Of a stretch of 64,000 nucleotides of DNA, positions 18,974-37,007 are shown piece after piece. The notes beneath the pieces were generated by a model that was given only the letters and a program-made list of their open reading frames with translations, was not told where the DNA came from and made no database searches. The stretch comes from an uncultured Acidobacteriota bacterium (lineage in GTDB: Bacteria; Acidobacteriota; Terriglobia; Acidiferrales; UBA7541). Location of the stretch: NCBI GenBank assembly GCA_963759485.1, contig CAVWZE010000002.1, forward strand, positions 1,498,618-1,562,617, in the 5' to 3' direction. Position 1 is the stretch's first letter; the number at the start of each line of letters is the position of its first letter. The position numbers and the translations under genes were made by a program.

Positions 18974-19008
18974 GCGGACCCCTTTCAGGGCCGTTCCCAG
19001 GCGGAGCG

Positions 19009-19623: not shown

Positions 19624-20576
19624 CTGGTCGATCCGGCGCGGGATAGAATCTCGCTCGCGGCGGCGTAGGGGTCCTTCTCTCGCGCTGCCACTTGTGACGC
19701 CAGTGCCTCGAACTTCGCGTCCGTCATCCCGCTGGCTGCAACTTGCTCAAGCAATCGTGACCGGACCAGCCGCATCAGCCATTCCTTCCAGTAGGCTACT
19801 TCGCGACTGCCGCGGCTCGGCGCGCTTGAAAAATGCTCGCGAAAAAGCGCGATTTGCCGCGCCAATTCGTCCACGCCGGTATTTTCAGTTGCAACTGTGC
19901 GGACCACCGGCGCCCTCCAGCCCTCCCGATCCGGCATCAGTTGCAAAATAGCGCGAAGCCGCTCTTCGAATTGCCCCGCGCCTTCGCGATCGCTCTTATT
20001 GAGAACAAAAATATCTCCGATTTCCATCAGGCCGGCCTTCAGGCTTTGCACGTCGTCTCCCATGCCGGGCACGAGCACCACGACCGTGCAATCCGCGAGC
20101 CGCACAATTTCAATTTCGCCCTGCCCTACGCCAACGGTCTCGACGAGGATCATGTCTTTTCCCGCGGCGTCCAATAGCAGCATCACATCGCCCGTGGATT
20201 GCGCAAGCCCTCCCAATTGACCGCGCGTCGCCATCGAACGTATGAAGACCCCTTCGTCGGATGAGTGGCCTTGCATGCGGATGCGATCACCCAGAATCGC
20301 GCCTCCGGTAAACGGGCTGGAGGGATCGACGGCGATGATGCCGACTCCCTTTGCGTGCGCGCGGTAGTGGGCGGCGAGCCGGTCCGCGAGGGTACTCTTG
20401 CCCGTTCCAGGAGCACCGGTGATGCCCACTCGAGAAGCTTTTCCGGTGAAGGGAAAGAGGGCTCGCAGCAGGGCTTCGGCTTCGGTCGCGCGATTCTCAA
20501 TCGCGGACACGGCGCGCGACATGGCGCGCACGTCGCCCGCGCGAATTTGCGCCACCCAGTTTTCAATCGCCGTCAT
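19620..20576 (-). CDS. meaB: MeaB/ArgK-family G3E GTPase (methylmalonyl-CoA mutase-associated)
   Basis: GAPGTGKSTL (P-loop), VETVGVGQ, NKSD motifs. Intact 318-aa ORF. Confidence 0.85.
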   Translation of the reverse strand: MTAIENWVAQIRAGDVRAMSRAVSAIENRATEAEALLRALFPFTGKASRVGITGAPGTGKSTLADRLAAHYRAHAKGVGIIAVDPSSPFTGGAILGDRIRMQGHSSDEGVFIRSMATRGQLGGLAQSTGDVMLLLDAAGKDMILVETVGVGQGEIEIVRLADCTVVVLVPGMGDDVQSLKAGLMEIGDIFVLNKSDREGAGQFEERLRAILQLMPDREGWRAPVVRTVATENTGVDELARQIALFREHFSSAPSRGSREVAYWKEWLMRLVRSRLLEQVAASGMTDAKFEALASQVAAREKDPYAAASEILSRAGSTS

Positions 20577-20612
20577 GGGGATTGGGGCGTTGGACTTGAA
20601 ACTGCTCTCGCC

Positions 20613-21634
20613 TTAATTGTGAGGGCCATTTTCCCGGCTGGAATTCGGGCGGCCAGAGCCTGACGCGCCTCGGCCGGAGTTTCCGCCAGTTTGTCCCCCG
20701 GAATATTCGTCGTAAGCCTTGATAATGCGCTGGACCAAACTGTGCCGCACCACATCGCGCTCGTCAAAATAAACCAGCTCGATGCCTTCGATCTTGCCTA
20801 CCACTTCGATGGCCTCCACGAGGCCCGAACGCCGCGTGTCCGGCAAATCGATTTGCGTCACATCGCCCGTGATCACGGCCTTGGAATTGAAGCCCAGGCG
20901 CGTGAGGAACATTTTCATCTGCTCGCCGGTGGTGTTCTGCGCTTCGTCGAGAATCACAAAGGAATCATTCAGCGTCCGGCCGCGCATGAAAGCCAGCGGA
21001 GCTACTTCGATGATGTCTTTTTCGAGAAACCGCTCGAGTTTGTCCGCTTCCACCAAATCGTGCAGAGCGTCGTAAAGCGGCCGCATGTACGGATCGACTT
21101 TTTCCTGCAGCGTTCCGGGCAAAAATCCCAGCCGCTCACCCGCCTCCACCGCCGGCCGCGCCAAAATAATTCGATTCACTTGCTTGGAAAGCAGCGCGGA
21201 AACCGCCATAGCGACGGCAAGGTAGGTTTTGCCCGTGCCGCCGGGGCCGATGGCGAAAACCATGTCGTAGGTTTCAAGGGCCTCGATGTAGCGCCGCTGG
21301 TTGGGGCTTTTCGGCGCGATGCTCTTTCTGCCCAGCGTTCGCGTGCGCGTGGGAGAGAAAGTTCCCCGCAGAGTCGACGCCGGTTCGTCCACGGCGGCGT
21401 GCAGCAGCGATTTTACTTCCTGGCTACTGGGAATCTGCCCGTGGCGAATTCGCTCGTTGTAGGCATCCAGAATGTGGCTTGCCCGCTCCACCTGCGATGC
21501 TTCGCCTTCAATCTCGAGGTCGTGATCCGTCAGGTGCGTCTGACGTGCAGCGAGGATTCCAGGAATTTCAGGTTTTCGTCGAGCGTGCCGAAGAGCTCGT
21601 TGATTCCTCCGGCGATTCGGACGGTTTGCTTCAT
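20613..21634 (-). pseudogene. phoH: PhoH-family ATPase, apparent frameshift near 21545
   Basis: ORF 20613..21491 has [16 protein letters not shown] and ILDEAQN. The N-terminus [31 protein letters not shown] (ATG at 21634) is in another frame. Confidence 0.8.
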
Positions 21635-21837
21635 CAAGTTTCGTGGTTGCTCAGGTAGCCTATCGCGCCCATCAATTCCGGTCAAGCGCATGTACCGGTC
21701 CAAATGATTGTGACACTTTTCAGATTGTAACTACAGGCGTTACTCAGACTGCGTTCTTGGGATTGCTTGAAGACCGCGAATCGATAGTGCGGAAAACACG
21801 AGAAAAAGAGCGAGAATGGCGCACAGGCGGACGATGT

Positions 21838-21911
21838 TGGTAGGGGCGGTGGGGATCGAACCCACGACCTTCGGCTTAAAAGGCCGCTGCTCTACCACTG
21901 AGCTACGCCCC
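21838..21911 (-). tRNA. tRNA-Lys (anticodon UUU), with encoded CCA
   Basis: Minus strand reads GGGGCGTAGCTCAGTGGTAGAGCAGCGGCCTTTTAAGCCGAAGGTCGTGGGTTCGATCCCCACCGCCCCTACCA. Cloverleaf arms, CTTTTAA anticodon loop and GGTTCGATCC T-arm are present. Confidence 0.9.
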
Positions 21912-21912
21912 T
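21876..21912. repeat. Island-flanking direct repeat, copy 1 (5' half of tRNA-Lys up to the end of the anticodon loop)
   Basis: The 37 nt ttaaaaggccgctgctctaccactgagctacgcccct are identical to 35223..35259. Confidence 0.85.
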
Positions 21913-21916
21913 ATAA

Positions 21917-23181
21917 CTACATGACTGGTAAAGATTTAATTTGTTCCTGCGGCCGCTCAGATTCGGGCTTTGCACTCGATTTCGCCCTTGTTTTGATCGG
22001 CCAAATAGGTTTCCAGCTTCCGCCCGCGTCCAGAATGTCCTTCTCGCTACTGATGTCGTAGCGGTCGAACACGCTGCGCGTCTTGTGTCCGGTGATCGAC
22101 ATGGCGACGCTCTCGGGCACGCCCGCGCGCACGAGATTACGCACTCCCGTGCGCCGCAGATCGTGAAAGATCGTGCCTTCGTAAGTCGATTCGGTCATCT
22201 TGCCGAATCCCAGCTTAACACAGCGGCTCTGCCAAACCTTGCGGAAGTCGCCGATCGGAAGCGGCTTTCCCTTCTCGACGCGGAAGCACACGAGATCGCA
22301 GCCGGGGCGCCGCTTGGCGTGCTGGGCGGTAAGCACGGCGCGCAGGTCGCCGATGAGCGGAGCCGTGCGTCCCTCGTCGTTCTTCGTCTCGCCTGCGTTG
22401 AGGCGGATCACGCCGTTGAGGAAGTCCACCTGACTCCCAGCGCAGGCCGACATATCTCGCCGAGCCGCATCCCGGTGTAGTAACCGACCGCCAGTACGGG
22501 CCGGAAGATAGTCGGGCAACGCTGTCGCGGAGCGCCACATATTTCTCGTGCTCGAAAAAACCTTGTGCGCGGCTTCGGTTCCGTGCTCAGCATCGGGAAG
22601 TGTGGCAATCGTTCTGTCGTAATTTTCCCGTCGCTTCACCGCGAGGTTGAACATCCGCCGCAGCGCCGACAGTGAGCGGTTCGTGGTCGAGTCGGCTCGG
22701 TCCTTCGCGCCTGGTCGGCGATCGAATTCTCCATCAGTTCGGTGTCGATCAATGAAGTCGCGCTGGTATCCCTTGAAAAACTCGTCCAGCCGCTTGACCT
22801 TGTCGAGACGACGGCTCGCCGTCCTTGTCGTAGCGCAGCGATTTGCGGCTTCTGTGTCACGTAGTCGGCCATAGTAGACCGCGCGCAAGTCCTCATAGGT
22901 CAGGCGCCGCAGGGCCGGGTGGTTCCCCGTCGTGACCTCGGCCTGGCTGCAGCTTCAGGCAGCCGCTCGGCATCCTTGCGGGTTGCGTCCCGCCCCGCGC
23001 TCTCCTGGACCTTCCGTCCGCGCGAGTAGTATTGAATCCACCAGACGTTGCCCATCTGCCAGACGCGGCCCGAGCCGCGCTTCGCGAGCCAGCGTCCGGG
23101 GACCAGCTTCCCCTTCATCACGTACTCGGGCTGCCAGACCATTCCCTCTGATGGCGGCCCGCCTTCCGGTTTCTTTTCCAT
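21917..23181 (-). pseudogene. int: Tyrosine-type integrase, fragmented by at least 4 apparent frameshifts
   Basis: Catalytic C-terminus in ORF 21917..22888 (HDLRRTGVRNLVRAG...ITGHKTRSVFDRYDI). Other pieces are VLAVGYYTGMRLGEI (ORF 22408..22608), ADYVTQKP (22636..22896) and the N-terminus MEKKPE...VWWIQYYSRGRKVQESAG (22900..23181). Confidence 0.75.
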
Positions 23182-23193
23182 TTTCGCCCCCTC

Positions 23194-23377
23194 CTATCGC
23201 TTCCCTTTTCGTTTCCGCCACCGTGCCCACCGCGCCTTCACCGCCCGTCGCGCTCGCTCGCTGCGCTGCTCGGGCGTCAGCGTCGCCATGAAACGCCCGC
23301 AAGTTCTTCCCGCCGCTGGCCTTCCCGCCCTTGCGGCCGAGCCGGACGGCGGCCGGGTCCTTGCGCTTCGTCGGCAT
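23194..23377 (-). pseudogene. Small basic protein (KDPAAVxLGRKGG...LTPEQRSExARRAxKARW type), apparent frameshift near 23290
   Basis: Manual translation gives MPTKRKDPAAVRLGRKGGKASGGKNLRAF, then in another frame MATLTPEQRSERARRAVKARWARWRKRKGKR*. AAGGAG RBS is present. Function unknown. Confidence 0.4.
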
Positions 23378-25705
23378 AGGTCTATTATACTCCTTAGCGC
23401 TGATGGTAGCTAGCGAAAAAGAAAGGCGGCAAGGGCAGGAACCCGACTGAGCACTACGTCGGGAGTTCAGATTAGAGATTTCCCGCTCTGGCAACTCTTG
23501 GCCCATTTCCTCTCGCCTGAAGCACCTCGATATCTTGCGGAATAACGCTGCACGGGTTGAGCTTCTTCTGCCGCCGATGAAGAAAGGAAAGCGTGGCCCA
23601 CAGATGCGATCACGTACCTTTGCTTTCCGTACGACAGGGCGAGAGGAATAGACCGTTTTCGCGGTGCCGAGGCGTTCCATCGCCTCCTCGTCGGACCCGG
23701 ACTGATGTCCGTCTCCCCACGGGAACTGGTGCAAGGTGACCGACTACGGCCGCGCGCTCCACGAGGAAACCGAGGCACAGCAGAAGGAATGGAAGGCAGG
23801 CTCCGGTCATTTCGCTGAAGGACGCCGAGAAGGACCAGAGCGATCATCAACGCGGGCGAGAAATCTCCGATCGGGATAGTTCTTCGTGTCCGAAGCTTTT
23901 CAAGCGTGCACGCGCTGCGATCCGGCACCACGATAACTACTGTTCCGGCGAGTAGCTGATGTGGCTGCTACTCGGACCTCCGCGTCAGTCGCAATCCGCA
24001 TCAAGACGTCCGTCGATAGGCGTTGAAGCAAGACCCCGCCTTTGACTCGTTCTGCCGGGCGTTCGCGAACCTGAGGCGCTCGGCGGAATTGCGACCCACG
24101 GGTGGATGAACACGACTGAAAGATGATCATTGATGATCGCGAAGCCTTTCAGGAACGGCGAAGTCGCCTCAAGGACATCGGTCGCAAGGGGACGACGATC
24201 GTGCGACTGAGGCATGTCGCCGAGCACGTTCGCGATGTTCGATCGGCCTCTGAAAACGCGGCGAAGCCGCTCTCGCGACCGTCATGCTTGCGTACCGTGC
24301 GTAAGCATCTGCGGCGTGCGCTACGCCATATTCGAGCGCCTAATATCCGTGCATGGTTCGCTGATTTCACGATCGCGGGAAGCTCCACAAGATCAATCGC
24401 CGCGAGAAGAAGCTCGACGCGATCGGGCTAAGGGTCCTGGCGGAGTCCAAGGAAAATAAGGAACCGACGATCATCGACAATTGCTACGACGATCATTGGC
24501 GGGAGTACGAGTCAAGCCATCGGGACCGACAAGCCTGTGTTGGAGGCCTTGCTGAAACAATTCAATGAGCGCCATCTCCCCAGGGCGGACTACAACGACG
24601 CCAGCAAATGGAATAAGCAAGATGAGGCCGTTCCCCACACGACAGAGATTCGTGCGCACGCCGGTGGCGATGGTAGAGGTTCGGCGGGCCGATCCGCCAG
24701 GAGCGACGAGAACGGCGCGGCAATCTATGATTTGCTCGATGAACATCATAGGAGGGGCCGTCACGATCCTCACCGGGCTGGCGGCCGCTCTCGCGATCGG
24801 TCTGGTGTCGGTCTGGAAACACAAGTGAGAAGGAGACACCGACGATGCAAGGACACGAACGTCTTCGACTCCAAGCGGCTTTGCATTATTCTGGATTACA
24901 AGTACCATCAGCGGTAATCTACACGCCGAGATGGCAACTTTTTGGGGTTCGGAAAAACATCAGAGAGTCGATTTTATTATCACGAGCGCTGAGATCATTC
25001 TCACAGTCGTCATCGTGTTTCAGATCGGTTGTGAGCTCCGAGAGGGCAGCAATCAGGTTCAGGACCTTAGCAAACTGAAAGAGCTGGATTGACCAACTTG
25101 TTGCGAGCACCAATAATTTAGTCACCGCGAACGAGTCCCTGGACGATTGCAACTTAGAAGAAGTCGCTCCCATCTCTGACCGATATGGATGCCGCGCTGC
25201 AAACGTCAGTAAAAAATACGCGGCAGTCAACCAATGCGATGCAGACGCAGTTGAAGGTTCTTCAGAAGGATCAGCAGGACCGTCTGCCGAAATCGCCAAG
25301 AAACCGTCGATTATCGCAAGCATTGGCTCCCTTATCTTAGGCAGCAAGGTAGGAGAATCCATTCAGTCTCTGAAACTAACCTTCCCCGAGGCAGCCTATG
25401 AAATGACGCTCACGAATGGAGGTACCCATCGGTTGCCCGTGGTTGTTCTGTGGGGTTGGAGTTTAGCGGAGGACGGCGCACTCTAGGCAGAGCGCGGAGA
25501 GCAACGGCGTCGCGTACGGGAACGGCTACGTTCCAAATACACCCTCAGCGGCTTTTCGGCGGACCGTCCCCGAGCACCACTGGCAGCGCAGCTTCGCCAG
25601 CATGACGGCGACGTAGTAGCGCTCGCGCGCGTCGGCGCCGCGAATCTGCAAGACATGCTCCAGCGGCCAAAACGACTACGTCGCTGATCAAGACTCGCAT
25701 TCGTT

Positions 25706-26453
25706 CTAGTCGAGCCGCTTCCGCGCGAACGCCTCTTCGAGTTGCTTGAGCGTCGTGATCTGGTGCGGTGGCGCGGCGGGCGCGGCGGAGCGCTTCTCGA
25801 TTCTGGACATCCGCTCTTCGAGCGCGGCGATCCTGACAACCAGGTCTTCGTGGTTCTTGCGGGGGAACAGCTCCCGGACGTCGCTCGGCGTGATGATCTT
25901 GGATTCGAGACGCGCGCGCGATGCAATCCGCGTTGGCCGGCACGTTGACGCAAGAAATTTCGAGCAAATCTTGCGACGTGAACTCGTAGCCGCCCGTGGG
26001 GGTGCCTTCTTCGTCCCTGATCAGCGAGGGTGGCGCTAACGGGAGAAATCCCACGCTGACGGCGCGCAAAAACTTGGCGCGATACATCTGATAGACGGTC
26101 TCTGCGAGCGAATAAACTTCCTTGGCGGCGAACTCGATGCTGGCGACCAGCGCGGGCGCTGGGCTCGCTTCCACGTGAATCTCGGTGCAGCGGCCGATCG
26201 GCGGGTCCGCGTTCCGGTGACTCCACAGGATGACGGGGTTTCGGCGAAAGTTTTCCAGTTTCCAGCCCGAGGTTTTCAGCGAATCGCCGTATCTGTCGAT
26301 GCTCTCCGTCGAAGCAACGAACGTGATCTCGCGCTTGGCCTCGTTTGCCGCCCTGATCTCGCTAGTGAACATCGCCCGCCGCACCGCGCCCACCTCCGGC
26401 TCCGCCGGGCTCCGCTCGACGTACTGGTCGAGCACTGCTTGAATCGCGCTCAT
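25706..26453 (-). pseudogene. HK97-family (S78-like) prohead serine protease, apparent frameshift near 25915
   Basis: ORF 25545..26453 N-terminal 180 aa: FVASTESIDRYGDSLKTSGWKLENFRRNPVILWSHRNADPPIGR...EISCVNVPANADC. A natural-looking C-terminus (KIITPSDVRELF...RIAALEERMSRIEKR...EEAFARKRLD*) is in another frame and ends at 25706. Confidence 0.7.
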
Positions 26454-26476
26454 GTCATCCTCCTAACCGCGAACGA

Positions 26477-26534
26477 GCGAGGTAGTAACCTCGGGGTTCA
26501 TATTAATAGACCCTATTAATATGAACCCCGGTTA
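26477..26534. repeat. Long near-perfect palindrome between the capsid and protease genes
   Basis: cgaggtagtaacc-tc-ggggttcatattaata / gaccc / tattaatatgaacccc-ggttactacctcg. Arms are about 29 nt, with one 2-nt bulge. Confidence 0.85.
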
Positions 26535-26562
26535 CTACCTCGCTGCTCCGAAGCCCTCAGTT

Positions 26563-27723
26563 TTAGTTCACGCCCTTCAGGATCACCACCCCGGCGCTCG
26601 GACTCACCGCCGCGTCGGAGTGCTGTGTTGCCCTGATGGCGACTTGCGATGCGTCGAAAAATCTCTCCGTGCTGATGGCCATCTCAATATTTGAATCCTG
26701 CGCCACGTGCACATATTTCATGTTTGTGAACAGAATCCAGCTCTGATTCGTGCCGCTGCCGTTCGCGAGCGTCTCCTCGACCATCGGCGAAACGAAAACC
26801 GGGAATCCCATCAGAAACCCGACGCTCTGGACCGTGCCCACGCCGGGACCCTGCTCCAGACCTTGGCTCAGGGTGGGGATGTAAATCGGACGGCTGCTGA
26901 GGTCCAGCATTCCGAGGACGCGCTGGTAAAACGTCCGCGGCGACATGATCCACGTGAACGGCGGTTTGCTTTTTACGGTCGATGCTTTCTGGAGCACCGC
27001 CAGGATGTCCGTGAACGCCAGGTTTCCGCCGTTCGCCGAACTGCCGACGAGCAGCGTCGAGGTGCTCGCGGCGGCGTAGATCGGCACCGGCCCGCCGCTC
27101 ACCTGAGAAGAAGACAGCAGCGCCGTGTCCTCGTGCTCGCCCGCAGCGAGTCCGATCAATTCAGCGATCAGCGTGTCGAAAGCAGGTACCGATGTGGCAA
27201 GTAACTGGTTGGGAATCGCGACGAGGCAGCGGCGTTCTTTCAAGTCGAATGCCATCTGCCCGAGGTTCGGATCGGACGGGGGCGTATATTGAGAATTTTG
27301 CGCCATCCAAATCCAGGTGGGCGAGGCAAGTGCGACCGGAACCGTGAGCTTGTTTATTCCGGTGCACGGCCAGATGCGCGCCCCCGCCGCGCGAACCACG
27401 CCGCCGGTCGCGAGGTATTGAATTATTTCGTCCGCCTGGAAAGTCGGAACGAGATAGCTCCCCGGCTGCGCGCCAGTCGTCAGAGCCTTCGTGTAGGCAA
27501 CGTCATCCTCGGCGGTCTGCGGATTGAGGGCCGGGCCTTGCTGAGCCTTCATCCCTCTGATCATTTTCGACAAACTGAACTGCGGCCCGCGCGACGACCT
27601 CTCCTGGGTCCGCTTCACGACATCGGCGATAGCGAGGTCCAGCTCTCGCTTCGTCGCGAAAATTCCTTTCTCCTCCAAAACCTTCGTCAGCGTGTTGATT
27701 ACTTCGTTTGCGATCAGCGTCAT
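26563..27723 (-). CDS. Phage major capsid protein, HK97 family
   Basis: Intact 386-aa ORF. N-terminal helical delta-like segment, then sequence typical of HK97-type capsids (GSYLVPTFQADEIIQYL...LTVPV...DLKERRCLVAIPNQLL...EDTALL). Confidence 0.8.
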   Translation of the reverse strand: MTLIANEVINTLTKVLEEKGIFATKRELDLAIADVVKRTQERSSRGPQFSLSKMIRGMKAQQGPALNPQTAEDDVAYTKALTTGAQPGSYLVPTFQADEIIQYLATGGVVRAAGARIWPCTGINKLTVPVALASPTWIWMAQNSQYTPPSDPNLGQMAFDLKERRCLVAIPNQLLATSVPAFDTLIAELIGLAAGEHEDTALLSSSQVSGGPVPIYAAASTSTLLVGSSANGGNLAFTDILAVLQKASTVKSKPPFTWIMSPRTFYQRVLGMLDLSSRPIYIPTLSQGLEQGPGVGTVQSVGFLMGFPVFVSPMVEETLANGSGTNQSWILFTNMKYVHVAQDSNIEMAISTERFFDASQVAIRATQHSDAAVSPSAGVVILKGVN

Positions 27724-28199
27724 GGCTGAGCTGCTTTCTGATCGCCTTTTTTATTTGCACTTCGCCCCTTCGCGCCCCGAAAAAAGAATCCCGAATCTCC
27801 CGGGGGTCGCTTGGGGCTGCCAACACGACCCCCGGGTTAGGCGGCTCGTTCTACAACGGCGCGGACGCCGCTTCCGGCACGAGTCCCGCCCGGTCGCCGA
27901 ACTCTTTTTCGCGGGGAAGGCCGGTAGGCTGCGCTGCTTCCCGGCCTTTTCCCCGCGTGAGCGCCCGGAAAGGAGGTCGGTGATGGATGCACCGTTTGCG
28001 CCCGGTACGCTCGTGCGCGCAAAATCAAAATCATTGTCTTGGGAACCCGCGCGAACTTCCGCGCGCTAACTCGCATCTGCCTCGATGAGAGGCTTTGGGT
28101 GCCGTCGATGCGTTCAACGGCCGCTCGGCTTCGTTGGTTCCGGGTTGAGCGAGCCCCGGCGCAGGTTGGTTGACCGCAGTCCTGGTCTGCGTAGAAGTA

Positions 28200-28229
28200 A
28201 TTATACCCCGAACGCCCCGCAAAGTATAC
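28200..28229 (-). promoter_or_regulatory. Promoter-like motif GTATAC-N18-TATAAT (minus strand)
   Basis: Minus strand reads GTATACTTTGCGGGGCGTTCGGGGTATAATTAC. A near-identical architecture recurs at 34998..35028. Confidence 0.3.
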
Positions 28230-28496
28230 CTCCGCCGCTTCCTGATGCCCGGCACGCCCCCCTGCCCCTCCCCTAGCCTATTTCCCTACTTCCACGGCAA
28301 AGTCGCCCCCGGCGGCCCTAGAACGCTACGGCGGGCCATTCTAGGGGGTCCCCTGGCCGCGTTTTAGCACCGGTTCGGCGTTGCGGTTTCCGCGGCGCCG
28401 CCACTTCCCGGCCCGCGCGGACGAGTCCTCAAAAAGTTGAATCCCCAAATGGTATTCAACTACCCGCTCCAGCTGGCTGGCCCACATCTGCGTCGT

Positions 28497-30047
28497 CATC
28501 GCCGCGGCCGCCCGAAGCTCGGGACGCGCCCTGGCCCGCCAACCTTGTGCCAAAGTCGCTCCGGACCCTGCCACGATGCATCGTTCCACTGCTCCGGCGT
28601 CGTCACCGACCCGCTGCGAGCGCTAAAAACATCGGGGATCAAATCTTCGAAACTGACCGGAGGCGCAGCCACGCACTTGTGAATCGCCAGCGCGGCGGCG
28701 ATGGCAACGTCGTCATGGCCCGTCGAAGCCTCGCAGCGCTCCCCCGCCGCCCGAACTCCGCACGATCTCCAGCCGGCGCAACTGCGAGATGAGTTCGGGA
28801 TTGTCGGGAAGTTCCAGCTGCCCGGCGAGCACCTTCGCGCGAAGCGTCGAATAAATTCCGCTCGCCCTACGCCCCAACGTGCTCACCTGTTCCAGCGCGA
28901 TTCCCGCCGACGCGAGCCGCTGCTTGACCACTTCGTTCGCGACCTGATCGCTGTACGCCCGCACGCATCCGTAGTGCTGGCAGACCTCGACGATCGCGTC
29001 CATCGTCGACGCGAACTGAATCGCCTTCCCCGGCTTCGGCTTCCACGATCGCGTCAAATCGACAATCACTCGCTCGCCTTCCGCGTGACTCAGCGCGAAC
29101 CCGAACCAATCGCTTCGGAACGCCACGTCGATGCCGGCGACGTAGGCCGCGCCAGGCTTCGGCGGATTCTCCCACCGCTCCCTCGCGACGCACGCGTCCA
29201 AGGCATCGCCCGGAAGTAGAGCCGAGGCCGCGTCCAGGAAGGTCGCGTTGATTTCCCTCTCGAACCGCTCCGGGTCACGCTGCCGTTCCGCTTCGAGCAA
29301 CTCGGCGCTCAGCGTCGGATTGCCCTGCTGCGAAGTCATCCGCATCACCAGCGGGTCCTCGCGTTCCAAACGCTCGGCGAACGCCCGCCACACCGGCCCC
29401 GACTTCGACCACGGCGACGTGATCAGCAGCATCCGGCCGCGCGGGAACTGAAGCAGCGCCGGCCTGACGGCCGCCAGAATCTCTTCGGCCGGATTCGTCA
29501 CGCCGTCTTCCTCGGACCTCCAGAACGCCGGCTCTTCGGCGAGACAGCACGTCACCGCAAATCCGCGGACCGAGCGCAGGTCGCACTTCTGCACGATTAC
29601 GTCGACTCCGTTCCTCAACACGAGCTTCTCGCGACGTGGGAGCAACGGCAGCAGGGATTTGAACGGCGAGTTCTTCAGCACCGCCACGATGCCGCGATGC
29701 GTGATCTCGGCCTGCTCCTTCGTCGGACCCAGGCAGACGACCGTCGCGCGCTCTCCTGGCCGCAGATTCTCATGCCGCTGGAACACTGCCGAGTAGGACG
29801 CGACCGGGACGGCGATATGAAGAGTCTTGCCGAATCTTCTGCCCGCGATCAGTACTCCCTCACGATGGAAACGCCCTGGCGTGTAACTGCTGCGCCCAGT
29901 CGCAGCGCAGTAGAGATCGAGTTCTTCCTGCGTCATCTCCAGGCCGTCGAGCGCCTTCAGAAACGCGCGCTGGCCGAGCGAAAGCGGGATGTTCAACAGC
30001 CGCGGGTGACAGGCCTCGATCAAGTTGACGTCAGGAATTGGAATCAT
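28497..30047 (-). pseudogene. terL: Phage terminase large subunit, apparent frameshift at a G5/C5 run (28741-28745)
   Basis: ORF 28713..30047 has Walker A-like AGRRFGKT and nuclease-domain GIDVAF. The conserved C-terminal TGHDDVAIAAALAI continues in another frame down to a TGA at 28497. Confidence 0.75.
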
Positions 30048-30495
30048 GGCGCGCTCCGTGGATTTCGGCCTCTATGGCCGCGAGTTCTGCGTTGACATCT
30101 GACGGCGCCGGTTCGCCCCCGTCTTTCGGCGTGAGATTCAGCGCCCGGAGGCAGCGCAACAAGCCACCCTGAAGCGGCGTCACCTCCGCGAGCAGCTCCG
30201 CGATGCGCCTGTAGCGCCGCGCCGACCGCAGTCTATCGAGTACCTGGCAAAGCCCGGTGTATGAAGCCGTTGCGGACGTTACCAGGGCGCGCTGCTGGGG
30301 CGTAAGGTCGGCGTCACCGCCTAGTTGCGCCGTCAGGCCGTCCTCGAACGCCCGAGACGCCGCCCTGATCGCGGGTAACGCCCTGATCCGGGCTTCGAGC
30401 GCGGCGGCGGCGTTCCGCCTGCCCGATTCCCGCATCCGCTCGCGCCCGGCGTCGCTGATTCGCGGCGCGGGCTTCTTTGTCGCTCGATTCGGCAC
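30031..30495 (-). CDS. Hypothetical protein; positional candidate for terminase small subunit
   Basis: 154-aa ORF with a GTG start preceded by GGAGGG. Overlaps the terL start by 17 nt. No recognisable motif; the assignment rests on position only. Confidence 0.3.
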   Translation of the reverse strand: MPNRATKKPAPRISDAGRERMRESGRRNAAAALEARIRALPAIRAASRAFEDGLTAQLGGDADLTPQQRALVTSATASYTGLCQVLDRLRSARRYRRIAELLAEVTPLQGGLLRCLRALNLTPKDGGEPAPSDVNAELAAIEAEIHGARHDSNS

Positions 30496-30549
30496 ATTTC
30501 CCTCCCCTTCCGCTCGTAGAGCGTCGGTCTATTAGACCGAGGTACCATC

Positions 30550-30810
30550 CTATGACGCTGGTTTCAAAGGCGTTACGGCACGGCTTACCCGACTCTTACC
30601 CGAAATCTGACCACGTTTCGCCGGTTCCTGCCGCGATCGCGCCCGCTCCAGCCACCGGTTCACGTCGCCCTGAAGCACGCAGAACCGCTTGCCGCACTTC
30701 AAGTACGGCATCTCCTCGTCGGCAAGCAAGCTCCTCACGAACCCCACCGAACAGCGCAATTGCGCGGCGACTTCGGGCAGCGTCAGGACCTTCAATTCCT
30801 CGGGCGACAT
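30550..30810 (-). CDS. Excisionase/MerR-like helix-turn-helix DNA-binding protein
   Basis: ORF 30550..31005, likely start at 30810. MSPEELKVLTLPEVAAQLRCSVGFVRSLLADEEMPYLKCGKRFCVLQGDVNRWLE matches the excisionase-family HTH pattern. Confidence 0.6.
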   Translation of the reverse strand: MSPEELKVLTLPEVAAQLRCSVGFVRSLLADEEMPYLKCGKRFCVLQGDVNRWLERARSRQEPAKRGQISGKSRVSRAVTPLKPAS

Positions 30811-31060
30811 CGCGGTGTTCTCCTGAAACGGAAACGGCCGCCCGAAGGCGGCCGTGAAGTAGGGTTTAAAATGCGACGCAGACGTGTGTGTGGAACCGGG
30901 ATTCCAGGCTAAGTAGTAGCCGGGGGTCACGGGGGTCAGGGGACTTATTTTGCCCTGACAAAGAATCGAAAAAAATAAATCCGTAGCTAGTGCCAAACTG
31001 ACCACCGTGACCCCCGCGTTTCGCGTAACGTAAACCCCCTCAAGCGGTTAACGGGGGGGG

Positions 31061-33488
31061 TCAGGAATGCTTTTCTACCGTCCAACGTGTTGCCTTGCGA
31101 TTTTTGGCGTCTTTTCGCAGGCAAAACTGCCCGATGACGCGATCTCGCCACCGTCTGGCCCAGGAACCGAGGACCCAGGCGTCGATCTTGTCCTTTCGGG
31201 AGCTGGCGACGGCGCTGACGGCGTCGTATAGCGCGGGATGGTCTAGCACGGTTTTCTTCTCGTCCCCGACCGTGTGCGATTGTTTCGCGTGCGTTCGCAC
31301 TTCGCTCAGTGTGAATAAATTTTCGCCGAAGGAACTTGCGAGCTCGCGCAGCGCGACGATGGTGTTCTCGCGTTCGGGGTCGTCGTCGATCACCTGTTCG
31401 CGCGTGAGGTAGGGGTCTTCCATTCCGACCCAAACGATTGCCGAGCGTATCACCTCGGACCATTCGTCGAATCCGCCCCACGGCTTGATCTCTTGCTTCG
31501 GCCGTCCGGCGACGTGGAAGGCGCGCAGGATCGTGAGCGCGGCGGTGACCAGTTCGCAGCGATGCCGGCGGAGATAAGACAGCAGGTTAGGGATTTTGAA
31601 CTCGCGCTCTTCGGGGCGCTCGATGCCGGCGTCGATTCGGCACAAGACGACTCTCGTTGTCAGGTCTCCGCGGAAGGTGATGTTGTTTCCGGTGGCGATC
31701 CAGAGCACGTTGGTCGGCAGCGAGAGTCTTCGCGATTCGCCCAGGACCCTGTCGCTGTATCGCTCCTCGGTGATCACGCGTGCCAGGTCTGGCGATTCCA
31801 GTACCTCGTCGACGTTGTCGAGCGTGATGATGGTTTGCCCTTCTCGCAAGGCGGAAAGGATGGCTTTGCGAATCTCCTCGCGGTCTTTCGAGATGGCGGA
31901 GGCCGCGGCAGGTTGGCCGACGGCCAGGATCGAGACGCCCGCAGCGAGGAGTGATTTTCCGTACCGCATCGTGGGTGCCGAGTAAGCGAACAGCGGGCAG
32001 GCGCCCAACAGTGGCCGTTCGAGTGCGGTCAGGATGGCGGCGACGTGCGTGGCTTTGTCGCCGGCCGAGACGAAGGGAAACTCGCCGAACGGTACTAGCA
32101 GCTTCGCGAGCGCGTGCTTCGCGTCAGCGAGCGTGGGGTGAGGTGGAATGTCTGGCCAGTCGTCATCCGATGCGAAGTACAGCATCGTTTGAGGATCGTA
32201 ACCGGGTTCCTTCAAGACGGTACCGTCGTGGCGAATGATCGGAGCAGAGACGATCCCCGCGAGCACGTCGACCTTCCAACTCCCGGTGCGGCCGCAGTAG
32301 GTTTGCGGGATGCGTGCCGGGCAGTCGATGCGCCGGAAGATGTCCGCGCCGGTGGTCTTGTCCTTGCCTGCCCATCGCTGGAATTCGGCGACGGTCTCGA
32401 ACGTCTCTCGCAGCGCGACGGGGGTGAGGGGTTGCAGTTGTAGCGTCCCCTTTCGGGCGCATCAGGCCCGCGGACTTTCGAGCTTCCGGCAAGCGGATCA
32501 CCTGCGTCAGCTCTCCGGCGCGCTGGAAGATGCATAGGCGCTGCGCGTGCGGTAGCAGCGCGGCTTCCGCCTCGTCGACGGCGGCCGGCATCTCTCCGAT
32601 GCGCACCGTGATGGCCGGCGCGTCGGATGCGACCGGCTTGTCCCCGATGCCGCGTGCGATCTGTTCTATCGCGTCGAGCGGCAATTCGTCCCATCCGGTT
32701 TTGTCGCAGCGGTCGAGGTCGATCTTCAGCTTCGCGATGATTTCCGCTTCGGAGTCCCCGCGCCGCCGGTAGCCCCCCGCGCGGGAGAGGAGCCAGTCGT
32801 AACGCTTGCCCTGCGGGATTTTCCCGTTGGTGCTGTCTTCTGGCGGATTGATTCCGTGCGCGGTCCTCGTGGCCGCGCAGGCGGCGAAGTCCTCGACGCG
32901 GTAGCGGCGGTCCCAGTCGGCGCGCATCAGCTCGACATCCTGGGGCGTGCCGTATTCCGGCTTGAAGTTCTTCGTCCCCGGTGGCCTGAGCACGCGGGCC
33001 AGCTCGGCGCAGGACGGGTCCGCTCCGAGCGCGGCGGTCAAGCCTTCGAGAATCGGCTCGACGCGCGCGTCCTGGGCGTCGATCGGCTCCGAGAGCAGCC
33101 AGTAGACGTGGAATCCGCCGCCCGAGAAGATGATGATCGAAGGCTCCGGGCGAAAAGCGCGGATGCGTTCGAGCGCCGCGGCCAGCGCGTCGGCGCCATC
33201 GACGTCCATGTCCATCCAGAACGCCGTCACCTCCCGGCAGTTTACCTTCCCACCGAGAGTCTTGCTTCCCTCGTGGCGGACGCCGTCGCGCGTGCAGATA
33301 CCGAAATAGACGTTTTCGCCCTTCGCTGTCCGCTGGTCGATGAAATCGGCCAGCTCCGCCATGTCTCGGCTGAAGATGCGCTTGTCGACGGGGCCACGCT
33401 TGCCGTTCTCGCTAGGTTTGAACGTGCGCAGTTCGATCTTGAACTTCGTCCCCGCGTAGAATTTTTCGAGGAACTCCGTCGCGTTCAT
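31061..33488 (-). pseudogene. Primase-polymerase (AEP) fused to P-loop NTPase/helicase-like domain, apparent frameshift at a G4/C4 run (32447-32450)
   Basis: ORF 32163..33527 has VYFGICTR, AFWMDMD, GGGFHVYWLL (AEP motifs) and a PriCT-like IPQGKRYDWLL. Shifting frame at 32447 reads through ...VDVLAGIVSAPIIRHDG into ORF 31061..32266 (APTMRYGKS Walker A, IITLDNVDE Walker B). Confidence 0.75.
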
Positions 33489-33523
33489 CGCTAGCGTTCT
33501 CCCAGTGGACTTTCCCAGTTGGT

Positions 33524-33565
33524 ACAAAAATGAAAAGGGCGCGCCACTGGGAGGAAGCGCGCCCT
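33524..33565 (-). terminator. Intrinsic terminator-like hairpin
   Basis: Minus strand reads AGGGCGCGC-(12 nt loop)-GCGCGCCCT followed by TTTCATTTTTGT. Confidence 0.5.
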
Positions 33566-33705
33566 AGTTCTCGGCTGTGCGGTGGTTGTGCCGCGGCGGC
33601 CGAAATTCTTGTTTACGGAAAGGGGGACCTAGGAGGCTTTTTGTACAGCAGCCGAAGCCTCCTAGGTTTTCGCGGTCCGCCCTCGGAGCGGTGACCGCGA
33701 AACTT

Positions 33706-34350
33706 TTAGTTTTCGTCCGCGTCGACCGGTGCTTGGTGAACTTCGCCGGTGACGACCAACGCCGCGAGATATTCGAGGATTTTCTCTTTGCCGACTTCGT
33801 GGAGCAGTGCCGCGAAGGCGGCGTTCGCGACGGCGGTGAGAGCGGTGTGTGTGTCCGGAAAATTCCGCGCGTATTCGCCGAACGTCACGCCGCCGAGGAC
33901 GTTTTCTATCGAGGCGGTGAATGCGCGGAGCCATCGTTGCGCGGGCGCCGAAAGAATTTCCGCTGCCAGAACGCGGCGGTGGAATTGTGCCGCCGTAAGG
34001 GTCTGCTCCAGCGTGAAGCCGTGCTTAGCGCCCCAATCGACGGCGAATTGTCGCCCCCATACCTGCGGAATTTCAGCCGGCTCCGAGTCGAGTTCCTGCA
34101 GTTTTCGGCGGAGCAATCCAATTCTGACGTTCATGTTTTCGGCGACTCCTCTCTCGCGTAGGATTTTCAACCCTTCGATCACGCGCTGGACTTTCCGGGC
34201 GCGCTCCGGGGACGGCGTGTGGATGTCGTTCATCCAGAAGGAGAGCAGGGTCGCCGAGAGGCCGGTCAGCTTCACGAGCGACTGCTGCTTGATTTCCAGC
34301 TTGCCCATCTCCGTCGCGAGCTGCTCGCCTGTCCAGATTGGCTCGTTCAT
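33706..34350 (-). CDS. Hypothetical protein with N-terminal XRE-like HTH
   Basis: 214-aa ORF. GEQLATEMGKLEIKQQSLVKLTGLSATLLSFWMND resembles a Cro/CI-type HTH. Confidence 0.45.
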   Translation of the reverse strand: MNEPIWTGEQLATEMGKLEIKQQSLVKLTGLSATLLSFWMNDIHTPSPERARKVQRVIEGLKILRERGVAENMNVRIGLLRRKLQELDSEPAEIPQVWGRQFAVDWGAKHGFTLEQTLTAAQFHRRVLAAEILSAPAQRWLRAFTASIENVLGGVTFGEYARNFPDTHTALTAVANAAFAALLHEVGKEKILEYLAALVVTGEVHQAPVDADEN

Positions 34351-34361
34351 TTGCGTGCCTC

Positions 34362-34394
34362 CAAATAAAAATGGCCGCCAGGAATCGGCGGCCA
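34362..34394 (-). terminator. Intrinsic terminator
   Basis: Minus strand reads TGGCCGCC-GATTCCT-GGCGGCCA followed by TTTTTATTT, about 30 nt downstream of the 34426 stop. Confidence 0.6.
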
Positions 34395-34425
34395 GCTAGA
34401 TGCGGTGGGAAAGTGGAATCGCCCG

Positions 34426-34893
34426 CTACGGCAGGCGCGGATATTTTCGCGACGCGATCAACACGTCGCGCAGTTGGCGAAGAAATTCCTGCGGCTCGCG
34501 GACGATCAGCTCGTACGGGACCATGACCAACGATATTCCAGGTCGTCGCTTGAAATAGCCGGGGTCGCTCGCCACGGACAGGTTCCCGGGCTTGTCGCGC
34601 TCGCCGGGGCCAACGATCAGCAGGCCGACATTCGCTCGCCGCCAGTAGAAATCGAGCCGAAAATCTTCGGGCAGTTCATTCTTTTCCTCGAATCGCGGCC
34701 GCGCCCAAAAATGGGCCGTCGCGCCAAACTCGCGCCTGAGAAGGCCGAACGCCCGCTGGTACACGCGCGCCCGCATCTGCGCTCGCGCATCGGCGAGGGT
34801 GACGCCGATGACACGTTCGCCCGCGAACTCGTATTCTTTTGAAAGTCCAGCTTGGATTGCCTTACGACGGAGAGAGGAAGGTAGCAGAGACAC
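34426..34893 (-). CDS. Hypothetical protein (first gene inside the right end of the island)
   Basis: 155-aa ORF. A weak DUF559/endonuclease-like impression (LDFYWRRANVGLLIVGPGE) is not enough to assign function. Confidence 0.35.
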   Translation of the reverse strand: MSLLPSSLRRKAIQAGLSKEYEFAGERVIGVTLADARAQMRARVYQRAFGLLRREFGATAHFWARPRFEEKNELPEDFRLDFYWRRANVGLLIVGPGERDKPGNLSVASDPGYFKRRPGISLVMVPYELIVREPQEFLRQLRDVLIASRKYPRLP

Positions 34894-34997
34894 CTACAGC
34901 GACCCATCCGGCAGCACCGCTACCGGCCTAACTTTGAGTTTGCAGGTTGCCCCGCAACCGGACTCTGATGACGGTCGGTCCGTGACCGTAGTTGCGA

Positions 34998-35028
34998 ATT
35001 ATATAGCTTCGCCGGGGCGAAAGTATAC
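34998..35028 (-). promoter_or_regulatory. Promoter-like motif GTATAC-N19-TATAAT (minus strand)
   Basis: Minus strand reads GTATACTTTCGCCCCGGCGAAGCTATATAATTC, about 100 nt upstream of the 34893 start. Confidence 0.3.
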
Positions 35029-35062
35029 TAAAAATTTTAGCGATTTTAGGGGGCCTGCGATT

Positions 35063-35137
35063 TGACCCGAAATTCACCCGACTTTCACCCGACGGAGCGT
35101 AACGGAGACGTACGGAACGCAACGGAACGTAACGCAA
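35063..35137. repeat. Two arrays of short phased direct repeats next to the island end
   Basis: gacccgaaatt/cacccgacttt/cacccgacgg at about 11-bp spacing, followed by gcgtaacgga/gacgtacgga/acgcaacgga/acgtaacgca at 10-bp spacing. Confidence 0.7.
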
Positions 35138-35222
35138 GAACCGCCCGCAAGTCGTTGATCCTGCGGGTGATGGTAGTGTTTTCAACGGGATACGCCGGAA
35201 ACCGCCAAAGGCCCGATTCGTT

Positions 35223-35259
35223 TTAAAAGGCCGCTGCTCTACCACTGAGCTACGCCCCT
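35223..35259. repeat. Island-flanking direct repeat, copy 2 (orphan 5' half of tRNA-Lys)
   Basis: Identical 37 nt to 21876..21912. No 3' half of a tRNA follows it. Confidence 0.85.
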
Positions 35260-35483
35260 GTGTGTTTTAACATCTTACATGGAAATGATTTAGCTGGCAT
35301 CGATGCTCAGAATAAATATACAGCGCTGTTCGTCGTGGCATTGGGGCCTGCAATTCGCGAATGGCATTGAACAGATTAGCGTGGCTTGGCCGAGCAGGGG
35401 GTCATCAGGATTTCGCGGGGCGCACTCGTCTTCGAATATGTCACCGGCCGAAGTAGATTCTTTGTACCTCGTTGTTTTTTCTA

Positions 35484-35831
35484 CTAAGAACGTGCGCCGT
35501 CCTGATGGGAGTACTTGATCACCTCGACTTCGGACGTGGCGATCAGCCCTTCTTCGACCACTTCATCGAGGAACGGCAGTAGTTTTTGAATTTTGTCCTC
35601 GGAATCGATGACGCTCACCATCACGGGAGCGTCGTGGGAAAAGGATAGCAGGTGAGTCTTTCGGATGAGTGTGCTCGCCCCGTATCCTTCGATGCCTCGC
35701 AGTACGGTAGCGCCCGCAATGTCCAATTCGCGGCATTTCTCAACAATCGCGCGATAAAGCGGTTTGCCCTTCCACTTATCGTCCTCACCGAAGTGGATTC
35801 GCAGCATTTTCGCCTTCCCTGAAAGCTTCAT
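35484..35831 (-). CDS. DUF190 (PII-like, CrcB-associated) domain protein
   Basis: LRIHFGEDDKWKGKPLYRAIVEKCRELDIAGATVLRGIEGYG. Overlaps the upstream gene by 4 nt. Confidence 0.75.
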   Translation of the reverse strand: MKLSGKAKMLRIHFGEDDKWKGKPLYRAIVEKCRELDIAGATVLRGIEGYGASTLIRKTHLLSFSHDAPVMVSVIDSEDKIQKLLPFLDEVVEEGLIATSEVEVIKYSHQDGARS

Positions 35832-36562
35832 GACCGGGCCTCCTTTCTGCGCTCCGTTGTCACAATGTCGTGGGTGTACTTGATGATGTCCACATCGGAC
35901 AAGACAACGAGCCCTTGCTGGACCATCTGATCGAGAATGGGGAAATAAGCCTGCAGCTTTTCCTCGGTTTCGACGACCGATAACATCATGGGCCGGTCAT
36001 GCGAGAGGTGCAGCGCTGAATCCTTGTGGATTCGCCGGTTCGCGCCGTAGCCCAGAATTCCCTGATACACCGTGACACCGGCGATGTCATTTGCGCGCAT
36101 GCTTTCGATCAAAGCCTTGTACAGCGGCTTATCGCTCCACTTATCGTTCTCGCCGACATAAATCCTCATTAGCTTGGCCCTGCCCTCGCGCTTGAGGGAG
36201 GGCGATGATTCTTGCGTGACTTTTTTCCCCGATAGTTCCGCCGGTTTGAGCACCGTCGTGTCTTGAATTTCGATCAGTCCCGTACCTGCTAAATCGTAGA
36301 GTTTCGGCAAAACTTCTTCGACCTTCTCCGCGGACTCGATAAATTCAATCTTCATCGGAAGGTCCTGCGTGAGGGCCTCAATCCGAGTTGTATGGAGGTG
36401 ATGATCAGCTCCAAATCCCGCGATCCCTCGCGTCACGCTGGCGCCGGAGATTCCGCGGTAGAAAAGGAAGTCCAGAATCGCCGAATATAAGGATTGCCCG
36501 TGGTACTGGTGGTCTTCCCCTACATAGATGCTGACCTTTTTGGCAGGTCCTGCCTTGAGCAT
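35828..36562 (-). CDS. Tandem double DUF190 domain protein
   Basis: Two copies of the pattern: VSIYVGEDHQYHGQSLYSAILDFLFYRGISGASVTRGIAGFG and MRIYVGENDKWSDKPLYKALIESMRANDIAGVTVYQGILGYG. Confidence 0.75.
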   Translation of the reverse strand: MLKAGPAKKVSIYVGEDHQYHGQSLYSAILDFLFYRGISGASVTRGIAGFGADHHLHTTRIEALTQDLPMKIEFIESAEKVEEVLPKLYDLAGTGLIEIQDTTVLKPAELSGKKVTQESSPSLKREGRAKLMRIYVGENDKWSDKPLYKALIESMRANDIAGVTVYQGILGYGANRRIHKDSALHLSHDRPMMLSVVETEEKLQAYFPILDQMVQQGLVVLSDVDIIKYTHDIVTTERRKEARS

Positions 36563-36629
36563 GTCGTCCCCCCCAAGCTTCCGATTCCGCAGTGTGCGAT
36601 CGAGAACTCAGCGGCCCTCGCCGCTCTGG

Positions 36630-37007
36630 TTACGAAATGGCTTTTCCGGTGATGACCCCCAGCCATACCGAGACAAAACCAACGGCCACGCTCAGCACGA
36701 TATTCATCGCCGCAACGAGAAGCTCGCCGTCCTGGAAGACACGAAACGTCTCGTACTCAAAAGCGGAAAACGTGCTGTATCCTCCGAGGAATCCAATAGG
36801 AATCAAGTACCTCCAATTCGGATTCCAGTGCGTTCTCTCGGCCAGAAGGGTCATGACAAAACCAATTAAAAACGAGGCCGTGATATTGATGACGAACGTG
36901 CCGTACGGAAAGCGAGCGCCCAACCGGCCGCTCACGTAGCCTCCGGCCCAGAAACGCAATATTGACCCTACGGCTCCTCCGATTCCAACAATAAGATATT
37001 TGGTCAT
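36630..37007 (-). CDS. crcB: Fluoride ion channel CrcB/FluC
   Basis: ORF 36630..37091, start MTKYLIVGIGGAVGSILRF at 37007. FVINITASFLIGF and GFLGGYSTFSAF are typical CrcB motifs. Confidence 0.9.
   Translation of the reverse strand: MTKYLIVGIGGAVGSILRFWAGGYVSGRLGARFPYGTFVINITASFLIGFVMTLLAERTHWNPNWRYLIPIGFLGGYSTFSAFEYETFRVFQDGELLVAAMNIVLSVAVGFVSVWLGVITGKAIS

Follow-up and report, generated by a model that had tools for sequence, protein, structure and literature searches.

Results

A tRNA-Lys island with phage head genes

A 64,000-nt stretch of DNA from an uncultured soil bacterium of the Acidobacteriota (GenBank assembly GCA_963759485.1, contig CAVWZE010000002.1, positions 1,498,618 to 1,562,617 of the forward strand; hereafter the window) contains an element bounded by direct repeats at a tRNA-Lys(UUU) gene. 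The element occupies window positions 21876-35259 and measures 13,347 bp from one attachment (att) repeat to the other. An earlier note on this DNA, made from the letters alone, had read here a discrete island whose genes, all on the minus strand, serve integration, replication, packaging and capsid formation. Pfam and PHROGs profile searches of the window's proteins identified every gene that it had named, and all recognized genes of the element do lie on the minus strand. The features are as follows, in window coordinates (ORF, open reading frame; HTH, helix-turn-helix; L013 and L020 are short-read contigs of the same element, described below).

21838-21912, minus: complete tRNA-Lys(UUU) gene (ARAGORN, Rfam), its 5' 37-43 nt element-derived after integration
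21876-21912 (extended 21870-21912): integrase-side att repeat, crossover in or before the anticodon loop
21917-23181, minus: tyrosine integrase, ~420 aa (PF00589; phrog_1, 6.5e-20, for ORF 21917-22888)
23194-23377, minus: small basic protein (MPTKRKDPAAVRLGRKGGK... / ...LTPEQRSERARRAVKARW...) from six-frame reading; weak phrog_12127 match (8e-4); frameshift at ~23295
23378-25525: cargo without assignment, ~2.1 kb, of lower G+C and weak codon periodicity (plot of third-position G+C, GC3)
25706-26453, minus: S78 prohead serine protease, ~249 aa (PF04586; phrog_80, 1.2e-18, for ORF 25545-26453; phrog_617)
26476-26543, minus: hairpin between the capsid and protease genes, perfect stem of ~32 bp
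26563-27723, minus: HK97-fold major capsid protein, 386 aa, intact (PF05065, 4e-23)
27724-28495: intergenic stretch between terL and the capsid gene, 772 bp, no conserved ORF
28496-30047, minus: large terminase, TerL (phrog_2, 1.1e-19, and phrog_9, for ORF 28713-30047; Walker A motif GRRFGKT)
30031-30495, minus: small all-helical protein, 154 aa, immediately upstream of terL and overlapping its start; conserved, family-specific
30550-30810 (ORF 30550-31005), minus: HTH_17 protein, excisionase/AlpA-like, 86 aa on L013 (PF12728, 1.5e-6; phrog_66, phrog_1840)
31061-33488, minus: primase-polymerase with RepB_primase, PriCT_1 and a C-terminal NTPase-like domain (phrog_29234, 9e-71)
33706-34350, minus: conserved 214-aa protein, weak XRE-type HTH (HTH_3, 0.0046, below cut-off), candidate regulator
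34426-34776, minus: hypothetical protein, 116 aa as called on L020, no family match; first gene inside the distal att repeat
35223-35259 (extended 35217-35259, two mismatches): distal att repeat, the displaced original tRNA-Lys 5' fragment

The capsid protein carries an N-terminal helical region of ~87 residues that resembles a delta domain. Its AlphaFold2 (AF2) model, of modest quality (predicted local distance difference test, pLDDT, 61), matches the HK97-fold capsids of phages, of RcGTA, the gene transfer agent of Rhodobacter capsulatus, and of SaPI1-type heads at a probability of 1.0; phage capsids head the structural matches, and encapsulins rank lower. The primase-polymerase is split in the window into two ORFs (32163-33527 and 31061-32266). 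The 214-aa XRE-like protein is encoded identically on L020 and shares 39-47% identity with ORFs in the equivalent position of two related elements, L001 and L006. Candidate cargo ORFs, on the minus strand, lie at 24471-24908 and 24919-25362, with a further short ORF at ~25526-25675 just downstream of the protease gene; no copy of the 147-aa cargo ORF was found in short-read contigs. An Rfam scan returned the tRNA only, apart from a spurious sub-threshold match at the capsid-protease hairpin, and a promoter and terminator scan gave counts not above those of shuffled sequence.

The island also differs from its surroundings in composition, with a G+C fraction of 0.61-0.66 over most of its length and values close to those of the flanks at 24-26 kb; the flanks are mostly at 0.52-0.58, rising to ~0.61 at 18-21 kb. 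The flanking genes are housekeeping genes, encoding MeaB and PhoH on one side and two DUF190 proteins, S30AE (ribosome hibernation factor), TruA and AhpC on the other, with no phage gene among them. Three host stretches (14974-17531, 40089-41651 and 43741-44806) contain no long ORF with strong codon periodicity and may be non-coding or, as this assembly carries indel errors, frameshifted genes.

The element integrated recently at the tRNA-Lys anticodon loop

The tRNA-Lys(UUU) gene is the sole tRNA gene of the window (Rfam, 75 bits). The two identical 37-bp repeats that the earlier note took as boundaries (21876-21912 and 35223-35259) are the exact core of a 43-nt direct repeat at 95% identity (21870-21912 and 35217-35259), and they correspond to positions 1-37 of the tRNA, that is, its 5' half up to the anticodon loop. 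The tyrosine integrase recombined the element into the anticodon loop of tRNA-Lys(UUU), and the 5' 37-43 nt of this gene were duplicated in the process. The locus has the makeup by which Islander defines a tRNA-integrating genomic island, an intact tRNA gene and a displaced, co-oriented end fragment with a tyrosine integrase gene between them.

An unoccupied site, which the earlier note had proposed to look for, is present on L070, a 940-kb contig from another sample that we located through the DUF190 protein adjoining the distal repeat. Here, tRNA-Lys(UUU) is uninterrupted and the element is absent. Its identity to the window is 99.6% over 35217-42564 and 99.4% over 16482-21912; these two stretches adjoin each other in L070, and their overlap is exactly the 43-nt att core. 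This empty site fixes the boundaries of the element and reveals a presence/absence polymorphism between near-identical genomes. The element thus integrated recently.

Integration left the rebuilt tRNA-Lys gene beginning 4 nt past the integrase stop codon. The native upstream region of the tRNA gene (35260-35320) is retained before the distal fragment, where it is now directed into the co-oriented 13-kb gene array. With this region displaced and the tRNA so close to the integrase gene, the tRNA would be expressed from inside the element or by read-through.

A different member of the family, L069 (ENA ERZ25039537, contig_136194), with a Prim-Pol replication module and other cargo, terminates at the same att/tRNA-Lys sequence, and its integrase DNA is 85% identical to that of the window element. 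At least two elements probably compete for the tRNA-Lys site in the same environment.

The element belongs to a conserved family in Acidobacteriota

Searches with the capsid protein returned 133 homologs (43-66% identical among the 120 listed), many of them on contigs of 12-14 kb. The copies with intact frames and the same gene order that the earlier note had suggested seeking do exist: at least 10 intact syntenic relatives (L001, L004, L006, L007, L008, L014, L018, L027, L050 and L069) encode capsids 42-63% identical to that of the window. Their common order is (small genes and an HTH regulator), replication module, HTH_17 gene, a gene for a small protein of 124-200 aa, TerL (483-546 aa), a gap, capsid, protease, variable cargo, (a second HTH_17 gene), integrase and tRNA. 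The capsid-before-protease order, which the note had marked as atypical, is therefore a trait of the family and not a rearrangement of the window copy. Elements with both ends at hand are listed below by tRNA gene, duplicated fragment and size from att to att.

L006: tRNA-Cys, 5' fragment, 12,028 bp
L050/L051: tRNA Leu-CAA, 5' fragment, 12,200 bp
L007/L035: tRNA Leu-UAG, 5' fragment, 12,318 bp
L008: tRNA Leu-CAA, 5' fragment, 12,326 bp
Window element: tRNA Lys-UUU, 5' fragment, 13,347 bp
L027: tRNA Arg-CCG, 3' fragment, 13,566 bp
L004: tRNA-Met, 3' fragment, 17,995 bp

Two further contigs, L014 (13.5 kb) and L018 (13.9 kb), carry tRNA 3' fragments at both ends, and sizes in the family run from 12.0 to 13.9 kb with one exception of 18 kb. 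The 5' tRNA half (positions 1 to 37-42), not the usual 3' part, is duplicated in the window element and in four distinct relatives (six loci: L006, L007/L035, L008 and L050/L051). This is a minority type, 5' tRNA fragments having been recorded in only 159 of 3919 islands by Islander (PMC4383910).

All named host genomes of the relatives are Acidobacteriota (Terriglobia, Candidatus Acidiferrum), and the relatives come from Acidobacteriota metagenome-assembled genomes (MAGs). The host of the window element, which the earlier note had found Acidobacteria-like from the letters, falls in the order Candidatus Acidiferrales by the name of a flanking-gene cluster. Within the shared order, the replication module varies among a RepB-type primase, Prim-Pol, D5_N/DUF5906, DUF3854 with AAA_25, and VapE. 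The cargo between the protease and integrase genes varies too, including a CAP12/Pycsar-type TIR protein, a trypsin-like protease, a CheB methylesterase, SprT-like and cold-shock proteins, and proteins of 1209-1259 aa without assignment that are common to L004 and L007/L035. The proteases are 44-52% identical to that of the window, and the TerL proteins match TerL_ATPase and Terminase_6N/6C in Pfam. Degraded copies also occur: L009 has a split capsid gene and neither TerL nor integrase, L054-L056 and L061 retain only a capsid fragment amid non-phage genes, and L011 is degraded as well. Intact and degraded members together indicate that both active and decayed copies reside in Acidobacteriota genomes.

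Outside the family, similarity falls off steeply. Among cultured phages, the closest capsid, from the Burkholderia phiE125 group, reaches ~25% identity, and the closest TerL proteins reach 22-28%; "Virus Rctr16k", the TerL match with the best coverage, was rejected as a relative, its genome being partial and including a tail gene. Neither the 7 genome loci nor the 44 metagenome loci nor the phage collection contained a homologous prophage of full length. Taken together, the element represents a conserved, previously undescribed family of tRNA-integrating elements in Acidobacteriota (Terriglobia), typically 12-14 kb in size.

Portal, tail and lysis genes are missing from the family

The earlier note could read no portal, connector, tail or lysis gene, and our profile searches of the gaps, together with the housekeeping flanks, agree. 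Frame by frame, the two stretches without assignment (23.4-25.7 and 27.7-28.5 kb) yielded no family of portal, connector, tail or lysis function: with PHROGs, the minus-strand frames of 22850-25650 and 27650-28800, three in each case, gave only the weak match of the small basic ORF, and with Pfam all six frames of 23150-25600 gave none. A functional HK97-like tailed prophage typically has a genome of at least 30 kb; the element measures 13.3 kb, and a head-tail-lysis module is absent both inside and beside it.

We extended the scan to the family with 92 ORFs drawn from nine intact relatives (minimum length 95 aa; capsids and integrases excluded). In this set, the Pfam matches were to protease, TerL, replication, HTH/sigma-r4 and cargo families only, with no portal, connector, tail or lysis family. 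PHROGs matches in the same nine relatives, for the best 25 of 71 families, comprised TerL (nine of nine relatives), protease and primase/helicase, with no portal. By these searches, a portal conserved in the family appears excluded.

In HK97-like head modules, the portal gene usually lies between terL and the capsid gene. The earlier note had seen about 770 bp without a convincing ORF at this place, and the 772-bp gap of the window indeed holds none; in relatives the gap spans 145-587 bp, shrinking to 145-191 bp in some. A hidden gene in this gap was considered and rejected, since the gap is not conserved and a short peptide in it is common to L014 and L027 only.

The only conserved protein of the family that lacks an assignment is the 154-aa protein encoded upstream of terL, which aligns weakly with the equivalent ORFs of relatives (124-200 aa). 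It has no informative Pfam or PDB sequence match (RecA matches were artifacts without a matched stretch), and a word-based homolog search returned only the protein itself. Modeled with AF2 from its single sequence, it consists of helices throughout (pLDDT 68), and Foldseek returned nothing at E <= 0.001 from either PDB or BFVD. We rejected it as a portal, as it is too small and has no portal-like match; by its position alone, it may be a candidate small terminase.

One locus outside the syntenic set, L038 (capsid 50% identical), was considered as a full phage and rejected: its capsid gene is accompanied by RusA, a weak adaptor-like ORF and then sugar-metabolism genes, with neither protease nor TerL. 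The ORF in question (L038 3080-3703, 208 aa) weakly resembles a head-tail adaptor (phrog_442, 3.8e-13) and an Ig-like-domain major tail protein, and is the only connector-like match in any relative.

Frameshifts in the window sequence are assembly errors where they could be compared

The integrase, protease, terL, primase-polymerase and small basic ORF are all frameshifted in the window sequence. The earlier note, which had listed the first four, was right about their presence; the decay that it offered as a competing explanation for them is not supported. Short-read (Logan) contigs of run ERR11718638, L013 (capsid protein) and L020 (214-aa HTH protein), provide an independent check. Together they cover window 26492-35252 (8.8 kb) with 0 substitutions and three single-base indels: relative to them, the window has a surplus G at 28745 and another near 32450, and it lacks a C near 28026. 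TerL is uninterrupted on L013 at 516 aa, the extra G at 28745 shortening the window ORF to 444 aa, and the primase-polymerase, disrupted in the window by the extra G near 32450, is uninterrupted on L020 at 808 aa. The frameshifts in terL and the primase-polymerase gene are thus shown to be assembly errors.

The remaining frameshifts, in the integrase, protease and small basic ORF, are most likely consensus errors also. The protease gene has a single phase switch near 25905 in the GC3 plot, with the frames joining at ...NADCIARA/RLESKIITPSDV... The integrase gene is more heavily affected: aligned with the intact 392-aa integrase gene of L069, its DNA shows 19 gap openings in 1 kb, including ~11 single-base +1 insertions at 22436-22872, outside homopolymers and often in threes that restore the frame, and one shift near 22945. 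Once the indels are removed, the gene encodes 324 aa with 0 stops, 85% identical to L069, and its 123 nucleotide mismatches are distributed over the first, second and third codon positions as 31:24:68. This third-position bias and the lack of stops indicate an integrase kept by selection, with noise overlaid. We know of no bacterial gene decay that produces an insertion-only pattern of this kind. The host flanks differ from an independent assembly by one gap per ~6 kb and the rest of the element by three indels in 8.8 kb, so the error cluster in the integrase gene is local. A plausible cause would be that reads from two related elements went into one consensus; no short-read copy of the integrase was found. 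More generally, a gene that looks like a pseudogene in a long-read MAG contig may owe this to consensus errors, which here had steered the reading toward decay.

A hairpin separates the capsid and protease genes

The hairpin in the capsid-protease gap of the window (perfect 32-bp stem, -61.8 kcal/mol, z = -9.3) has counterparts in L001, L003, L004, L014, L018, L025, L027 and L033, where a G+C-rich hairpin followed by a U tract resembles an intrinsic terminator; the sequences differ between elements. We infer that the hairpin probably serves as an attenuator and sets the ratio of capsid to protease in favor of the capsid, in which case the unusual capsid-before-protease order would make sense.

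Discussion

Comparison with known satellites and related elements

By gene content, phiRv1 and phiRv2 are the closest known design to the family described here. The phiRv1 element of Mycobacterium tuberculosis encodes an integrase, excisionase, primase, terminase, prohead protease and capsid; a portal is not among the genes listed for it (PMC12268328), and phiRv1 and phiRv2 are treated as candidate satellites resembling phage-inducible chromosomal islands (PICIs) (PMC10085698, PMC10654092). Likened by gene content alone, these elements of ~10-13 kb have a set that matches that of our family, with portal, tail and lysis genes not listed, and the gene content by which we defined the phiRv1/phiRv2 type after PMC12268328 is present in the window element. 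Lack of a portal, which the earlier note had thought would be a new variant, is therefore not new in itself. There are also clear differences. The two groups live in different phyla; in phiRv1 the order by Rv numbering is terminase, protease, capsid, whereas in the Acidobacteriota family it is terL, capsid, protease; and phiRv1 uses a serine integrase and a non-tRNA site, in contrast to the tyrosine integrase and tRNA-Lys site of the window element. Mycobacterial candidate PICIs with tyrosine integrases do insert at tRNA genes (PMC10654092). The novelty lies in finding the portal-less design in Acidobacteriota, in a family that is large, coherent and evidently active and has the capsid-protease order reversed.

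The cf-PICIs, capsid-forming PICIs, likewise are integrative islands (median ~14 kb) with their own HK97 capsid, protease and terminase that depend on a helper for the rest. However, a cf-PICI has genes of its own for a portal, head-tail connectors and an HNH nuclease and needs the helper for tails only, and none of these genes was found here; moreover, cf-PICIs are known from Proteobacteria and Firmicutes. SatelliteFinder separates cf-PICI from PICI by the portal and the head-tail connector or adaptor components; tail and holin genes count as forbidden in a cf-PICI. The cf-PICI-like logic suggested by the earlier note therefore holds in part: the element encodes its own capsid, protease and TerL and has neither tail nor holin gene, but it lacks the portal and connectors that define a cf-PICI.

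Classical PICIs, including the Staphylococcus aureus pathogenicity islands (SaPIs), and P4 share with the family their size, site-specific integration, a replication module of their own and an AlpA/Xis-type HTH protein. These satellites package into small capsids sized for the satellite genome. They remodel the helper capsid and use or redirect the helper terminase, whereas the family described here encodes capsid, protease and TerL itself. The HK97 'mini viral entities' (bioRxiv 10.1101/2025.06.18.659913) are also small and integrative, with an HK97-fold protein and no portal or tail; in contrast to the present family, with its conserved TerL and S78 protease and a phage-like capsid, they lack terminase and packaging genes and have encapsulin-like shells. 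The window element, with a conserved TerL and phage capsids as its best structural matches, accordingly falls outside that encapsulin-like group.

A helper-dependent satellite as the best explanation

We consider it probable, by a fair margin over even chances, that the element is an intact, recently integrated member of a conserved Acidobacteriota family that acts as a helper-dependent phage satellite; a satellite-like nature was also the earlier note's preferred reading of a discrete tRNA-integrated element with these gene classes. On such a model, infection or induction of a helper phage would lead the element to excise and replicate, to build its own small procapsids and to package its DNA with its own terminase, and the helper would supply the portal, head-completion proteins, tail and lysis functions, a dependence that has also been proposed for phiRv1 and phiRv2. 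The conserved size of ~12-14 kb implies a shell that would be much smaller than a ~40-kb T=7 head. Swapped replication modules and variable cargo are traits that speak for a satellite, and helper dependence gains indirect support from the functions that are missing, from the conserved size and from the polymorphism of the insertion.

The earlier note had weighed a different origin, a decaying remnant of a tailed prophage whose portal, tail and lysis genes were deleted and whose remaining genes were gaining frameshifts. The frameshifts in five genes of the window and the degraded family copies (L009, L054-L056, L061, L038) would fit such a history, but the shifts in terL and the primase-polymerase gene are missing from the short-read contigs of the same element, and the integrase, freed of its indels, has no stop and diverges with a third-position bias. 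Gene content and order moreover recur in at least 10 intact relatives whose capsids have diverged to 42-63% identity, element sizes are narrow, the site is empty in a 99.5%-identical genome (L070), and no full-length prophage relative turned up in the genome loci, metagenome loci or phage collection. We therefore regard decay as very improbable.

Two other readings accept the element as functional. It might be an autonomous minimal virus-like element in which the portal, and possibly a delivery device, is an unrecognizably divergent protein, either among the cargo or the 154-aa protein itself. A self-sufficient packaging module would be the simplest design, as TerL normally needs a portal to dock; several relatives encode large unassigned proteins (1209-1259 aa, 1052 aa and 379 aa), and the 2.1-kb cargo of the window is unreadable. 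Yet these large proteins are not conserved across the family, the only conserved candidate (124-200 aa, all-helical) has no portal-like match, no tail or lysis gene was found in the scanned relatives, and the usual portal position is just 145-191 bp long in some of them, which leaves this reading unlikely. Somewhat less likely again is an HK97 shell put to another use, such as tail-less transfer particles, a gene transfer agent (GTA)-like function or an encapsulin-like compartment. Small integrative HK97 elements with neither portal nor tail have been reported (the mini viral entities, bioRxiv 10.1101/2025.06.18.659913), and the capsid model has matches to the RcGTA capsid as well and, further down the list, to encapsulins. 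Those entities, however, have no terminase, and in this family a TerL with ATPase and nuclease domains is never missing; prohead protease and TerL point to phage-type DNA packaging and maturation, and the top structural matches of the capsid are phage capsids.

Among these readings, a satellite lifestyle, reasonable but unproven, is the most likely. Several points weigh against it. No helper phage is known for the family, and excision, a circular form and packaging of the element are without evidence so far. A search of IMG/VR viral contigs did not recover the family, the capsids found there being only 24-25% identical. To our knowledge, no system has been demonstrated in which a shell and a terminase encoded by a satellite work with a foreign portal. 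The closest counterpart, phiRv1, has never been shown to form particles (PMC12268328). In addition, the power of the portal search in the 2.1-kb cargo of the window is limited by indel errors there, a portal confined to one relative is possible given that the best 25 of 71 PHROG families were seen, and a real, very recent inactivation of the integrase alone is possible too.

A bolder proposition, which we advance tentatively and hold somewhat less probable than its opposite, is that the family follows a hijacking strategy new to satellites, in which the satellite would make its own whole shell (with a scaffold-like domain and a protease) and motor, the helper giving only the portal vertex, head completion, tail and lysis, and that it is the first satellite family described in Acidobacteriota. 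Under this strategy, a foreign portal would have to nucleate or enter the satellite procapsid and dock the satellite terminase. As for the phylum, we found no paper describing phage satellites in Acidobacteriota, in line with the earlier note's remark on the phylum.

If the satellite reading is right, the family would be a second, independent lineage beside the mycobacterial phiRv-type elements. Two unrelated phyla would then have converged on the design of capsid, protease and terminase without a portal, which would suggest a working design and not debris, and the old question of what phiRv1 and phiRv2 do, as well as whether a shell and terminase can work with a borrowed portal, would become testable. 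If the satellite reading holds, the range of phage satellites would also come to include Acidobacteriota, a phylum dominant in soil.

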